Assembly (NCBI RefSeq): GCF_036377015.1
Contig: NZ_DASUZE010000116.1
From: Piscinibacter sp.
Lineage (GTDB): Bacteria > Pseudomonadota > Gammaproteobacteria > Burkholderiales > Burkholderiaceae_C
DNA length: 64,000 bases
Direction: 5' to 3' (one strand)
Under the pieces are notes generated by a model. It saw only the letters and a program-made list of their open reading frames with translations. It was not told the DNA's origin and made no database searches. Positions 44,239-48,724 of this stretch are shown here, one piece after another (position 1 is the stretch's first letter; each line of letters opens with the position of its first letter). A program made the translations under genes and the position numbers.

Positions 44239-44265
44239 TACGAAGGCCCGGGCCCGAAACGGACA
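44239..44265 (-). promoter_or_regulatory. Candidate ECF promoter TGTCCG-N17-CGTA
   Basis: Sense TGTCCG tttcgggcccgggcctt CGTA. Confidence 0.6.
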
Positions 44266-44290
44266 CCGCGCCGACGAAAAGTGCCGGGCC

Positions 44291-44479
44291 CTATTGCACC
44301 GGCCGGTCGTCCTTCCGGTGCTTGCGGCAGCGCCACCAGCAGATCAGGAGACCCGTTCCCAAGCCGGTGCCGAAGCCCAGAGCGAACAAGACCCCGCCTC
44401 CCGATGCTGTCTCGGCATGCGCGCTCATGGGAACTGCCAGCAATGCGGCATAGGCCGCGATCTTCTCTTTCGTCGTCAT
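44291..44479 (-). CDS. 62-aa protein: signal peptide, TM helix and basic tail
   Basis: AGGAGAG RBS, 12 nt after kinase stop; AHA-E cleavage site, hydrophobic GVLFALGFGTGLGTGLLICWW, RCRKHRK. Confidence 0.65.
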   Translation of the reverse strand: MTTKEKIAAYAALLAVPMSAHAETASGGGVLFALGFGTGLGTGLLICWWRCRKHRKDDRPVQ

Positions 44480-44491
44480 TGGCTCTCCTCG

Positions 44492-47278
44492 TCAGCTGAA
44501 GAAATCGGAACCCAAGGGCCCCACATCGTGCGAGCGCTGTGCATGGTCGAGGCGCTCCCTCAGTCGCACGACCCGGGCATAGGCTGGCGCCGAGGCGCCC
44601 ATCGCTCGGCGCAGGACCGGCTCCGCCGCGCTCAGGACGTCATTGGCCTCCTGGAACCGACCCAATGCCCCCAGTGCCACCGCACGGTTGACAGAGTACA
44701 GCGTCGTGAGCGGATGTTGCGCCCCGTAGACACCCGACATCTCGTCCTGTCCCTGGCCCAGCCAGCGCAAGCCCCCGTCCGGATCGCCTCCTTGCAACAG
44801 CGACACGCCCATCAGCGTCTTTCCGTAGGCGAGCATCGCCTTGGCGGGCAGACTGGTCTCACCTGCGGCCAATCGCCTGAGGACCTCGTCGATGCGTAGC
44901 CGGGCGGCGGCGGTCTCGCCCATGCGCAACTGCGACTCGGCCAGGACGAGGGCGGCAAGCGCGCGCAAGGGCGGGTTGATCTGCAGCTTCGCGCTCGGTT
45001 TGCCGAAGTCGGACAGGCGCTCGAACAGGGCCTGCTGGCGCGGCGACGGTCCACGCGCCGATTCCATGCGCAACAGCAGGATGGTCGCCTCGATTTGCAT
45101 CGCGGGGGACGCCGCATCCTGCGTCAATTGCTCGACGAAGGCGTCGTCCTGCGGGCTGAGCTGCGTCATGCCGAGCTTCAGCATCACGCGGGCCTTGCGC
45201 AGCACCAGCTTGCGGCACGACTCGTTGTTGGGCCCGAACTCGCTCACGCACGCCGGCAGCGTGGCCGCGATGTGTGAGAGCGCATCGACGAATCGGCCGG
45301 CCGCGTCGAGCAGTTCGGCCCGCGTGTCTGCCAGCACCGCCGGCTCCTGGGGGTTCTTGTCGCCGGCACGGGCGACCGCACGCTCCAGCTCGTCCTGAAG
45401 GGCGAGGGCGCCGTCGAAGTTTCGAAGCAACCGCTCGGCGTAGACCATGCCGCGCATCGCGCTGAGCGTTCGGTCGTGCCCAGGACCGAAGGCCTTGAGC
45501 GCATAGGCCTTGCTCTGGCGGAACAGGTCGCGGGCACGCGCTCCGTCGCCTTCGATGTGTGCGATCCAGCCACCGACCTCCTTCAGGCGGGCATTCAGCT
45601 CGGCGTCGGCCATGGGCCGGTCGGCCACATCCTCGGCCTCGCGCAGCAGCACGCCGGCGCGCTGCGCCTGCCCCAGGCGAAGGACCACGTTCGCATGCGA
45701 TGCCCGCGCCAGCACTTCCTGGCGGGGCATGTTCAGCTCGGAATACAGGCGCACGGCGTCCTCGAAGGTGCTGTCCGCATCGACGTACTCGCCCATGTCG
45801 CGCTGAATGGTCCCGATGCCCATCAGCAGCTCGGCCTGCAACCGCGGCTGCCCCGCCAGCCGCTTGAGCAGATCCGACCGCCCGCTCTGCAGCAGCTCGC
45901 GCGCGGTGATATCGGCCCCGCGCGACTTCTCCTGATCCGCCCGCTTGAACAGACTCAGCATGAAGTCGCGCGCCGCGCCCGCACGCGCCGACTCCTCGCG
46001 CGCCTGCATCCCCAGTGCCACCGCCACGCTGGCCACCGCGACCAGCGACGCGATCGCCGTCACCCCCAAGCCGAAGCCCAGCTTGTGGCGCGCCGCCAGC
46101 TTGCGCGTGCGATACCAGAACCCCGGAGCCCGCGCCAGCACCGCCTCGCCGCCCAGCCAGCGGTCCACATCAGCCAGCAGCGCGTCGACCGACGAATAGC
46201 GGCCGAAGGGCTTCTTGGCCAGGCAGCGCAAGGCGATCGCGTCGAGCTCGGGCGACAGCGCCTTGTGCAGCGCCTTGACCGTGGTGCCGCGCGCCTCGGC
46301 CGACGCCGGGGACAGAGGCCGCCGGCTCGGGGCGCGCGGCTCGACCTCGAGGATGGCGTGCTCCAGCTGCGCCGGCGAATCCACCCGCAGCTCGTACGGC
46401 CGCTCGCCGCACATCAGCTCGTAGAACACCACGCCCAGCGAGTACACGTCGCAGGCGGTGGTCAGCGGCAGGCCGGTGAGCTGCTCGGGGCTCGCATAAC
46501 GCGGCGTCATCGAGCGCCCGGCCTGCCGGGTGAGCTCGGTCTCGGCGATCGCGTCACCCTCGGCCTCGAGCAGCTTGGCGATGCCGAAGTCGAGCAGCCG
46601 CACCTCGCCCTGCGGCGTGACCAGGATGTTGGCGGGCTTGAGGTCGCGGTGGATCACCAGGTTGGCGTGTGCGTGCTGCACCGCCAGCAGCACCTGGCGG
46701 AACAGCTGCACCCGCTCGCGCAGCGGCAGCCGGCGCTCGTCGCAGAAGGCCGAGATGGACTGGCCCTCGACGTACTCCAGCGCCAGCCAGGCCTGGCCCT
46801 CGGCGGTGACGCCGGCATCGAACAGCCCGGCGATGTGCGGATGGCGCAGCGTGGCGAGGATGTTGCGCTCGCGGTCGAAGCGCGCCGCGAAGGACTCGCG
46901 GCCCGGCCGCGGATACGGCAGCTTGATCGCCACCTGGCGCTTGAAGACGCCGTCGTCACGGTCGGCCAGCCACACCTCGGCCATGCCGCCCTCGCCCAGC
47001 GGACGCACGAGGCGGTAGGGACCGACACGGCGCCCGGGCGACCAGTCGCTCCCAGGGGACGATTCGGCACGTGCCGACAACCTCGGCAAGGTACCCAGGA
47101 AGTCGTCGGTCTCCAGATGGGCGCGCGCCTCCAGCATGCGCCGCAGCTGCGGCAGCAGCGGGTGACGCGCCGACTCCAGGCGGGCGAGCCAGGCCGGCAG
47201 CGCGTGCGCCGGCAGCGCGTCGGCCTCTTCGTAGAGGGCCGACAACGCGGACCACTGCTGCTCGGGCGTGTGGTTCAT
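44492..47278 (-). CDS. Membrane Hanks-type Ser/Thr kinase with TPR-like C-terminal sensor (module 1)
   Basis: GEGGMAEV, VAIK, HRDLKPAN, DFGIAK, YASPEQ, DVYSLG; TM helix; helical repeats. Confidence 0.93.
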   Translation of the reverse strand: MNHTPEQQWSALSALYEEADALPAHALPAWLARLESARHPLLPQLRRMLEARAHLETDDFLGTLPRLSARAESSPGSDWSPGRRVGPYRLVRPLGEGGMAEVWLADRDDGVFKRQVAIKLPYPRPGRESFAARFDRERNILATLRHPHIAGLFDAGVTAEGQAWLALEYVEGQSISAFCDERRLPLRERVQLFRQVLLAVQHAHANLVIHRDLKPANILVTPQGEVRLLDFGIAKLLEAEGDAIAETELTRQAGRSMTPRYASPEQLTGLPLTTACDVYSLGVVFYELMCGERPYELRVDSPAQLEHAILEVEPRAPSRRPLSPASAEARGTTVKALHKALSPELDAIALRCLAKKPFGRYSSVDALLADVDRWLGGEAVLARAPGFWYRTRKLAARHKLGFGLGVTAIASLVAVASVAVALGMQAREESARAGAARDFMLSLFKRADQEKSRGADITARELLQSGRSDLLKRLAGQPRLQAELLMGIGTIQRDMGEYVDADSTFEDAVRLYSELNMPRQEVLARASHANVVLRLGQAQRAGVLLREAEDVADRPMADAELNARLKEVGGWIAHIEGDGARARDLFRQSKAYALKAFGPGHDRTLSAMRGMVYAERLLRNFDGALALQDELERAVARAGDKNPQEPAVLADTRAELLDAAGRFVDALSHIAATLPACVSEFGPNNESCRKLVLRKARVMLKLGMTQLSPQDDAFVEQLTQDAASPAMQIEATILLLRMESARGPSPRQQALFERLSDFGKPSAKLQINPPLRALAALVLAESQLRMGETAAARLRIDEVLRRLAAGETSLPAKAMLAYGKTLMGVSLLQGGDPDGGLRWLGQGQDEMSGVYGAQHPLTTLYSVNRAVALGALGRFQEANDVLSAAEPVLRRAMGASAPAYARVVRLRERLDHAQRSHDVGPLGSDFFS

Positions 47279-47371
47279 CGTGTTCCCGGGACTTGGTGCG
47301 GCAAGATCTTAGGGACGGGTCCGCAGGGGCGGAATCCCGACCTTGTAGGAGCGCGTCTCCACAAGTCGAAC

Positions 47372-47398
47372 TACGGAACGGGCCTGCGAAAGCGGACA
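47372..47398 (-). promoter_or_regulatory. Candidate ECF promoter TGTCCG-N17-CGTA upstream of kinase 1
   Basis: Sense TGTCCG ctttcgcaggcccgttc CGTA. Confidence 0.6.
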
Positions 47399-48010: not shown

Positions 48011-48013
48011 GTT

Positions 48014-48349
48014 TCAGCCGCGCTCCTGCGCCGCGAGCGACTGCTCGCGCCAACGCTGCAGCTGATCGGCGGTGGCCTCGAAGCGCATCCCATACACCCA
48101 GGGCCCCTGCTGCCGCATCTCCAGCGCAAGGCGCGCGGCCTCCGCATCGCCCAGATCGGCCCGCCGGACCAGCGACGCATAGCTGCTGAGCCACAGGTGC
48201 CGCTCCGGCTCGCCGGGCAGCAGCGTCCCGGCGTCGGGCGGCTCGGTCCCGGCACAGGCCAGCAGCAGCAGGCAGGACGCCAGGGCGGCGAGCATCACGA
48301 GCAGGACGCAGGCCGGCCGGACCTGCGCCCTCGGCAGTCGGCCACTCAT
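48014..48349 (-). CDS. Hypothetical exported protein, probably a lipoprotein
   Basis: Basic N-terminus, hydrophobic stretch ending LLLAC; starts 1 nt after the DUF4148-like stop. Confidence 0.6.
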   Translation of the reverse strand: MSGRLPRAQVRPACVLLVMLAALASCLLLLACAGTEPPDAGTLLPGEPERHLWLSSYASLVRRADLGDAEAARLALEMRQQGPWVYGMRFEATADQLQRWREQSLAAQERG

Positions 48350-48350
48350 C

Positions 48351-48635
48351 TCAGCCGCCGGTGTGAAGCGGGTCGACGCGATGCGCATGCGCGGCCGCTA
48401 CCGCCTCCGCCCGCACCTCCTCGCGCGTGCGCACGGCAACGAACGGCGGGTCGGCGCGCAGACTGGCCTCGCCGCGCACGATCTCGCCATCGGCGCGCGC
48501 CTGCGCCAGTGCCGATTTCACGGCCTCGCGGGTCAGGACCGAGGGCTCGATCGGAAATTCGGTGGCCTCCATGGCGATGCTCGCGCCGCCCACCAGCGCG
48601 AGTACCGGAACGAGAATCAACTGCCGGCTGTTCAT
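48351..48635 (-). CDS. DUF4148-like small periplasmic protein
   Basis: Signal peptide; LTREAVKSALAQARADGEI..GE and TREEVRAEA repeats; AAGGAAG RBS. Confidence 0.8.
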   Translation of the reverse strand: MNSRQLILVPVLALVGGASIAMEATEFPIEPSVLTREAVKSALAQARADGEIVRGEASLRADPPFVAVRTREEVRAEAVAAAHAHRVDPLHTGG

Positions 48636-48697
48636 GACGCTTCCTTTGACAATGAGGTTGACGAGACCCCGACCCCTCTCGGCGTCTCGGCCCCATG

Positions 48698-48724
48698 TAC
48701 GTGAACGGCCCGCCGGAGCGGACG
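48698..48724 (-). promoter_or_regulatory. Candidate ECF promoter CGTCCG-N17-CGTA upstream of DUF4148-like gene
   Basis: Sense CGTCCG ctccggcgggccgttca CGTA. Confidence 0.58.

Follow-up and report, generated by a model that had tools for sequence, protein, structure and literature searches.

The 64,000-nucleotide stretch of Piscinibacter sp. DNA analysed here (hereafter the window; RefSeq assembly GCF_036377015.1, contig NZ_DASUZE010000116.1) carries two genes for extracytoplasmic function (ECF) sigma factors, ECF1 and ECF2, each of which is divergent from the gene of its own Ser/Thr kinase (kinase 1 and kinase 2, respectively). Interspersed with the two pairs are small genes and three copies of a bipartite element, GTCCG-N17-CGTA, which we call P1, P2 and P3. 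Followed along the minus strand in the direction of transcription, the order is kinase 2, P3, a DUF4148 gene, a lipoprotein gene, P2, kinase 1, a small gene that we call p62, P1, and an open reading frame (ORF) of 40 amino acids (aa), sORF40. A comparison of this locus with its relatives makes it likely that the three elements are promoters of the ECF type, read by a local kinase-activated sigma factor.

Occurrence of the element in the window and in the genome

The pattern GTCCG-N17-CGTA has three exact matches in the window (44239-44264, 47372-47397 and 48698-48723), all on the minus strand, where 0.23 are expected; three or more were reached in none of 100 dinucleotide-preserving shuffles. 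A scan of the whole assembly (6.06 Mb, 69% G+C), which the sequence-only reading of this DNA had proposed, found 13 copies on both strands, three of them in this stretch of 4.5 kb. The three window sites are intergenic, have the same orientation and each point at a start codon: the CGTA lies about 50 nt 5' of the ATG of sORF40 (44189) in P1, about 94 nt 5' of the kinase-1 ATG (47278) in P2, and about 63 nt 5' of the DUF4148 ATG (48635) in P3. The sequence-only reading had listed these same three copies, with T or C in front of GTCCG, and had placed behind them a 40-aa ORF, kinase 1, and DUF4148-like and lipoprotein genes, respectively. The copies are where it put them, and the gene map agrees with the genes that it named.

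The minus-strand sequences of the sites are gTGTCCGTTTCGG…TTCGTAtt (P1), tTGTCCGCTTTCG…TCCGTAgt (P2) and gCGTCCGCTCCGG…CACGTAca (P3). The base 5' of GTCCG (position -1) is T in P1 and P2 and C in P3. Conservation extends beyond the original pattern to the T at -1 and to a TTT tract at +6 to +8, one base past GTCCG; the tract is present in P1, P2 and their orthologues, and P3 has TCC in its place. The 17-nt spacing is found in all 27 orthologous or paralogous sites. The element thus consists of two short asymmetric boxes at a fixed spacing with CGT(A/C) as the -10 box, as is characteristic of ECF promoters, and P1 and P2, but not P3, also carry a T-tract beside the -35 box within the spacer. 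The earlier view that CGTA fits the ECF -10 pattern is borne out by the sigma-W/V promoters, whose -10 box is likewise CGTA or CGTC (PMC5758882).

We built a position weight matrix (PWM) from 16 orthologous sites and scanned the whole genome with it (ranks of the window sites are given in Table 1). Of the other seven matches in the top ten, which had no part in building the matrix, three are no more than 3.1 kb away from other ECF43-like genes. Such proximity applies to about 0.5% of the genome, so that three in seven would arise by chance with a probability of roughly 4 in a million. These sites, on contigs C89, C117 and C20, are followed by genes for a kinase paralogue, a Tll0287-like/HAMP membrane protein and a lipoprotein, respectively. 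The Tll0287-HAMP gene is itself divergent from another ECF43-like sigma-kinase operon, and its distance from the site would give a nearly leaderless mRNA. The best match unlinked to a sigma gene (C103:9943, GTCCT-N17-CGTA before the gene of an 84-aa protein) was rejected as a conserved regulon member because the protein belongs to a multi-copy family, is present in G010, a genome that lacks ECF1, and is absent from most genomes that have ECF1.

Conservation in the genus and in related loci

Twelve genomes of the same genus contain an ECF1 orthologue (84-92% identity) and four congeners do not; the genus takes in Albitalea terrae and metagenome-assembled genomes (MAGs) assigned to Piscinibacter or Rhizobacter. 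P1 is kept in front of sORF40 in all 11 genomes of the genus that have this ORF, exactly in ten and as GTCCT in one, always with the 17-nt spacing. The first six loci read TGTCCGnTTTG, then twelve unconserved bases, then CCGTAT, and five further orthologues, located on other contigs or, in G004, about 6 kb past the kinase gene, display the same pattern. The orthologues of sORF40 are 40-42 aa long and 53-80% identical, and have a Shine-Dalgarno sequence; by its conservation, sORF40 is a real gene and, of the targets of the motif, the best conserved. The combination of sORF40 and P1 occurs in 11 of the 12 genomes with an ECF1 orthologue versus none of the four congeners without one (hypergeometric p ~0.003).

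P2 (ATTGTCCGCTTTCG…CGTA) is kept in 8 of the 12 orthologous loci, which answers the call of the sequence-only reading for a check upstream of orthologous kinases. As in P1, its boxes are fixed and its spacers vary. More distant relatives (Rhizobacter, Caldimonas and other MAGs), whose sigma factor is 63-78% identical, also have it in front of the divergent kinase. The kinase-1 orthologues are 59-88% identical. P3 is kept, as TGTCCGCTCC-N-CCGTACATG, in G008, the sole other genome with a second sigma/kinase pair and a DUF4148 gene; P3 came together with that second pair.

The genome G031 belongs to a different family of the order and is smaller and poorer in G+C. It has three GTCCG-N17-CGTC sites, all within 3.5 kb of its sigma gene. 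One of them is between the stop codon of the sigma gene and the start of the kinase gene, and P2 is therefore not conserved solely through its overlap with the start of ecf1. The G031 sites (at 269, 1212 and 2054 of locus L015) share longer flanks, caaaccatGTCCG … CGTCtgtacgagtgaa, which suggests that whole promoter cassettes were duplicated there recently.

Species-representative genomes were scanned with a four-sequence sigma alignment, which yielded 80 loci (0.62 Mb). In most of them the sigma factor is about 50% identical to ECF1; they come from Roseateles, Caldimonas, Ideonella, Casimicrobiaceae, Steroidobacteraceae, Povalibacter and others. GTCCG-N17-CGT(A/C/T) has 84 matches in these loci, or 136 per Mb versus 15 per Mb in the Piscinibacter genome, and each of the other spacings from N12 to N23 gives 7 to 43 matches versus the 84 at N17. 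In the 78 matches outside the genus, positions that the pattern left unconstrained echo the window sites: T at -1 in 82%, A at -2, G at +5, and T at +6 and +7. The resulting family consensus is ATGTCCGGTT-N12-CGT(A/C), and the -10 box is CGTA 37 times, CGTC 31 times and CGTT 10 times.

Of the 84 matches, 19 fall within 300 nt past the end of the sigma gene and 12 point away from its start in divergent orientation; the gene itself contains none, and only three could drive it. Where the sigma gene and the kinase gene are in tandem, in that order, the motif sits between them in the orientation of the kinase gene. According to crude ORF calls, the genes past the motif encode mostly lipoproteins, proteins with signal peptides, small membrane proteins with a single pass (43-95 aa) and a multi-pass membrane protein that recurs. 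The single-pass proteins, preceded by a Shine-Dalgarno sequence, follow the motif in at least seven distant loci (L048, L078, L095, L096, L097, L107 and L108). The multi-pass protein, which starts MDWGYK..LT..TVA…FGRRLAG.LAGLP.ITAP.LLWIA.EQG, follows it in L093, L099 (two copies) and L106, from unrelated Burkholderiaceae and Roseateles, and may be a common regulon member of this class of sigma factors. In contrast to the motif, the cargo appears to be lineage-specific, as tblastn searches with sORF40, p62 and the DUF4148 operon found none of them in the 80 related loci.

Considering that the core of the pattern specifies only nine bases and that paralogous sigma/kinase pairs could have inherited shared upstream sequence, the three window matches might be chance occurrences or remnants of local duplication with no function. 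This is extremely unlikely: apart from the outcome of the shuffles, only the boxes are conserved, across 11 genomes; kinase 2, although paralogous, has no motif; and the excess in the 80 independent loci is specific to one spacing.

The sigma factors, the region of P2 and the adjacent genes

Both sigma factors match the PF07638 and TIGR02999 models (Table 1), which are associated with group ECF43. They consist of regions 2 and 4 only, and each adjoins the gene of a transmembrane Hanks-type kinase that is composed of a Pkinase domain, one transmembrane helix and a C-terminal half rich in TPR repeats. A scan of neighbouring ORFs revealed no anti-sigma domain. Directly before LVHE, the acidic DAED of region 2.2 is replaced by NTTM in ECF1 and DTTT in ECF2, and all six paralogues in the genome carry T or S at this position. 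Such a replacement of DAED by uncharged residues with a conserved Thr, of the QTTA or STTA type, is the hallmark of ECF43 (PMC8999054, PMC13147305).

The helix of sigma region 4.2 (ERTVRRRWDKARAWL) is identical in ECF1 and ECF2 and region 2.4 is nearly so; the two factors are therefore expected to read the same sites. In five genomes (G001, G002, G006, G009 and G015) the ECF1 orthologue is the only sigma factor of the TIGR02999 type, and P1 is present in all five and P2 in four. The reader of P1, if it is a sigma factor of this type, must thus be ECF1. Overall, ECF1 is the likely reader of P1 and P2; ECF2 probably reads the same sites and may have been the original reader of P3.

The element could also be a genuine promoter or operator with a different reader, either another ECF sigma factor or a linked DNA-binding regulator: a first look at the genome gave 35 sigma-like candidates, and the -35 box is without the usual AAC (PMC5758882). 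We consider such a reader improbable. The motif tracks ECF43-type genes through the paralogues, through another family and through 80 loci of differing gene content, and P1 persists in the five genomes where the ECF1 orthologue is the sole sigma factor of its type. Moreover, asymmetric boxes, a strict 17-nt spacing and a CGT(A/C) end form the pattern of a sigma factor and not that of a dimeric regulator.

Several observations nevertheless weigh against promoters read by ECF1 and ECF2. The AAC triplet, usual but not universal in ECF -35 boxes (PMC5758882), is missing, and the box is TGTCCG(G), which we treat as a group-specific -35 box. P3 deviates from the consensus at -1 (C) and in the T-tract. 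Genome-wide, the bare pattern is no commoner at N17 than at N14, N20 or N23; the regulon must therefore be small, and bare matches outside such loci mean little. P2 has decayed in 4 of the 12 orthologous loci (G004, G007, G013 and G006), and the kinase can therefore do without this feedback. Albitalea terrae S-16 combines a decayed P2 with P1 and sORF40. Among the related kinases, no more than about a quarter (16 of 66) have an exact copy of the motif in the 300 nt upstream, usually at 28-113 nt from the start. Finally, the sites are assigned to ECF1 and ECF2 by linkage alone, in a genome with many other ECF sigma genes.

ECF1 and ECF2 are not preceded by the motif, and hence neither sigma gene shows the promoter that autoregulation would call for. 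The absence of the motif before kinase 2, which the sequence-only reading had pointed out, also stands: there is no PWM match of 9 bits or more at N16-18 between P3 and ECF2. A TGTCCA in the gap between kinase 2 and ECF2 was dismissed, being merely the reverse complement of the ECF2 start (Met-Asp-Thr), and this intergenic region is otherwise poorly conserved between the present genome and G008. The true start of kinase 2 may well be the GTG at 51501, which has GGAGG 4 nt 5' of it, and probably not the ATG at 51585. A GTG start would widen the gap to ECF2 from 26 to about 110 nt, making it similar to that of the first pair.

The distance from the end of the P2 -35 box to the ECF1 start codon is 10 nt. 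The box is overlapped by a plus-strand GACAAT (47395-47400), which precedes the ECF1 ATG (47408) by 6-7 nt; 9 of the 12 orthologues retain this spacing, and the other three have an insertion of 30-45 nt. The arrangement suggests a possible leaderless ecf1 mRNA, for which GACAAT would serve as the -10 box and overlap P2 as a mirror image. Taken further, P2 might be conserved as a promoter of the sigma-70 type for ecf1 on the plus strand (TACGGA-N17-GACAAT, with the mRNA beginning at the ATG), its likeness to P1 and P3 being secondary. The kept spacing of GACAAT speaks for this, as does the persistence of ATTGTC in G004 and G007, where the rest of P2 has decayed. Even so, we find this explanation very unlikely, as the same boxes and spacing recur at P1 and P3 with no plus-strand gene following, and as tandem loci have the motif between the sigma gene and the kinase gene, in the orientation of the latter. 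Furthermore, TACGGA is a poor -35 box (2 of 6 positions), and a strict sigma-70 consensus scan, with block B (see below) and the ecf1 side included, found no promoter. The two functions do not exclude each other, as the -35 box of P2 and an ecf1 -10 box may share bases; judging from this geometry alone, it is plausible that a polymerase at P2 would exclude a polymerase at the ecf1 promoter and so cause interference.

Between P2 and kinase 1 there is a further conserved sequence, block B, which lies about 25 nt before the kinase-1 ATG and is separate from the GTCCG-N17-CGTA motif. It occurs once in the genome and is kept better than P2, in 12 of 12 orthologues of the genus, and is absent in Rhizobacter and Caldimonas relatives that retain P2. 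Block B may be a basal kinase-1 promoter (with TAAGAT as its -10 box) or an operator. A degenerate copy, CTACAACGGGAGGAC…CATCAT, is found before kinase 2.

The coordinates of all features are collected in Table 1. In sORF40 the hydrophobic helix comprises residues 16-40, and no Pfam or NCBIfam family matches the protein. An ORF of the p62 type (…GGGFAGGLLGALLACWLCKRR… in relatives) starts about 14 nt past the kinase stop codon in all five orthologous loci examined, and p62, which is without a family assignment, probably belongs to the P2 operon together with kinase 1. The DUF4148 and lipoprotein genes are translationally coupled (TGAgATG). The stop codon of the lipoprotein gene and that of ECF1 are convergent and 3 nt apart (window 48008-48016), with no space for a terminator; read-through from P3 would run antisense to ecf1. 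The corresponding gap in G008 is about 70 nt. A strict consensus scan found terminator-like sites only at chance level. In some orthologues there are hairpins between p62 and P1, not uniformly so, and Rfam contains no known RNA family that matches 43800-52300.

Table 1. Features of the sigma/kinase locus and motif-like sites at paralogous loci. Coordinates refer to the window unless a contig is given; start sites are predictions.
Feature	Position	Strand	Description
sORF40	44067..44189	-	40-aa ORF; GGGAG Shine-Dalgarno; acidic N-terminus, then one transmembrane helix (MTSQEPLFDNDALDNPWPALAWIVLAAAVTITAFLLAPLP)
P1	44239..44265	-	TGTCCGTTTCGG-N-TTCGTA; exact match; PWM rank 2 in genome
P1 boxes	-35 44265-44260; T-tract 44258-44256; -10 44242-44239	-	-35 TGTCCG; -10 CGTA
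P1 predicted start site	near 44231-44233	-	
p62	44291..44479	-	small exported/anchored protein: signal peptide, Gly-rich transmembrane anchor, basic tail
Kinase 1	44492..47278	-	Hanks-type Ser/Thr kinase; Pkinase 4e-42; TPR_12; transmembrane helix 399-427; C-terminal TPR sensor region
Block B	47306..47348	-	CTACAAGGTCGGGATTCC-N19-CCTAAGAT (also written CGGGATTCC-N19-CCTAAGAT)
P2	47372..47398	-	TTGTCCGCTTTCG-N-TCCGTA; PWM rank 1 in genome
P2 boxes	-35 47398-47393; -10 47375-47372	-	-10 CGTA; predicted start near 47364-47366
ECF1	47408..48010	+	PF07638 1e-46; TIGR02999 182 bits vs cut-off 126; NTTM
Lipoprotein gene	48014..48349	-	111 aa; lipobox LLLAC; stop-free translation; orthologue in G008
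DUF4148 gene	48351..48635	-	small exported protein; PF13663 8e-7 (above cut-off); N-terminal hydrophobic segment; first in P3 operon
P3	48698..48724	-	CGTCCGCTCCGG-N-CACGTA; exact but weaker match; PWM rank 6 in genome
P3 boxes	-35 48724-48719; -10 48701-48698	-	-10 CGTA; predicted start near 48690-48692
Kinase 2	48751..51585	-	Pkinase 4e-39; transmembrane helix 428-455; TPR repeats; 45% identity to kinase 1
ECF2	51612..52190	+	PF07638 2e-48; TIGR02999 182 bits vs cut-off 126; DTTT
C89 site			GTCGG-N17-CGAT; directly before kinase paralogue
C117 site (locus L026)	G000 C117:60229-60264		GTCGT-N17-CGTT; 11 nt before ATG of Tll0287-like/HAMP membrane protein
C20 site			GTCCG-N17-CGAT; before lipoprotein gene, 3 kb from sigma/kinase pair

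A model of the locus and its relation to known systems

We propose the following model, in which P1, P2 and P3 are likely ECF-type promoters under the control of local ECF43-type sigma factors. Each promoter would consist of the -35 box (A)TGTCCG(G/C), one free base, a short T-tract and, 17 nt after GTCCG, the -10 box CGTA. A signal sensed by the periplasmic TPR part would activate kinase 1, kinase 2 or both; the membrane kinase would then phosphorylate the region-2.2 Thr of its sigma factor (within NTTM of ECF1 or DTTT of ECF2), which would thereby become able to bind core polymerase. By analogy with EcfP/PknT and EcfK/PknS (PMC8999054, PMC13147305), we infer that phosphorylation is the trigger. 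Transcription would yield the 40-aa membrane peptide from P1, kinase 1 and p62 from P2, and the DUF4148 protein and the lipoprotein from P3. The sigma genes would be expressed from other promoters and, like kinase 2, would be outside the control of the motif. That the sites are transcribed, where they start and which sigma factor reads them we infer from sequence.

Two proposals of the sequence-only reading gain support from the comparison. The first, positive feedback on kinase 1, agrees with the retention of P2 in most orthologues and in Rhizobacter and Caldimonas, and with the position of the motif between sigma and kinase genes in tandem loci. The second, that the motif defines a local sigmulon, agrees with an oriented, bipartite element of fixed spacing that travels with sigma/kinase pairs of the ECF43 type.

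A bolder version of the model would make the tiny single-pass membrane proteins (sORF40 and p62) the conserved core output, acting back on the TPR kinase, with both kinases feeding two sigma factors of the same specificity into shared promoters (an OR gate) and only kinase 1 amplifying itself. P1 with sORF40 is the best-conserved site (11 of 11), the motif accompanies sORF40 even when the ORF is about 6 kb past the kinase gene (G004), and the small transmembrane proteins that follow the motif in distant loci fit this picture as well. We nevertheless hold it to be rather unlikely, and that the 40-aa peptide affects the kinase at all is speculative. The precedent is MgrB of enteric bacteria, a small membrane peptide that is induced by the PhoQ pathway and then inhibits it. 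As with MgrB and PhoQ, the gene of a tiny single-pass membrane peptide neighbours that of a membrane sensor kinase, and its promoter appears to be under the pathway of that kinase. In contrast to MgrB and PhoQ, to which there is no sequence relation, the kinase here is a Hanks kinase that would act on a sigma factor and not a histidine kinase.

Kinase-activated sigma factors of the ECF43 type are widespread and, to our knowledge, just two have been studied at the bench. Their sigma genes lack autoregulation, and inspecting the sequence upstream of the sigma gene therefore does not reveal the target promoters. A consensus valid across Burkholderiales and Steroidobacteraceae would make ECF43 regulons readable from sequence. 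It indicates that feedback, where present, falls on the sensor kinase and not on the sigma gene, and that small envelope proteins, including a 40-aa peptide absent from family databases, are the main output. With such a consensus, simple reporters could also be built to search for the signals to which these TPR kinases respond. The literature searched contained no published promoter motif for ECF43; one may exist in print, since the primary EcfP and EcfK papers were outside the search. A kinase-switched ECF sigma factor as such is an ordinary kind of bacterial switch.

In architecture, the element is close to the ECF promoters of Bacillus subtilis that are read by sigma-W and sigma-V (Gaballa et al., PMC5758882), which have tGAAACnTTTt at -35, with the T-tract one base past the hexamer, and CGTA or CGTC at -10. 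The register is the same: a -35 hexamer that begins with TG, a free base, a T-tract in the spacer and a CGTA or CGTC -10 box. The spacing is likewise fixed and falls towards the long end of what has been reported for ECF promoters. The differences are in the core of the -35 box (TCCG instead of AAC), in the ECF group, in the presumed control by phosphorylation and not by an anti-sigma factor, and in the lack of autoregulation of the sigma gene.

The closest relatives in mechanism are the two ECF43 systems known from experiment. EcfK/PknS of Xanthomonas citri (PMC13147305, PMC6653060) also combines a transmembrane Hanks kinase, which has an extracytoplasmic sensor region, with an adjoining ECF43 sigma factor that is activated by Thr phosphorylation, as we suppose for the present pairs by analogy. 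EcfK, however, controls a type VI secretion cluster, of which there is none here, and these two sources describe neither a promoter motif nor feedback on pknS, whereas here a kinase gene carries the motif. EcfP/PknT of Vibrio parahaemolyticus, also of group ECF43 (Iyer et al. 2020, as relayed by PMC8999054 and PMC8103513), shares the Thr in place of the acidic DAED (STTA in EcfP; NTTM and DTTT here), the Hanks-type Ser/Thr kinase as partner and, as far as those accounts go, the absence of an anti-sigma factor. The present locus differs from it in having two adjacent pairs, whose kinases carry long TPR sensor regions, and in its predicted output, which is a set of small envelope proteins in place of the polymyxin-resistance regulon that those accounts attribute to EcfP.

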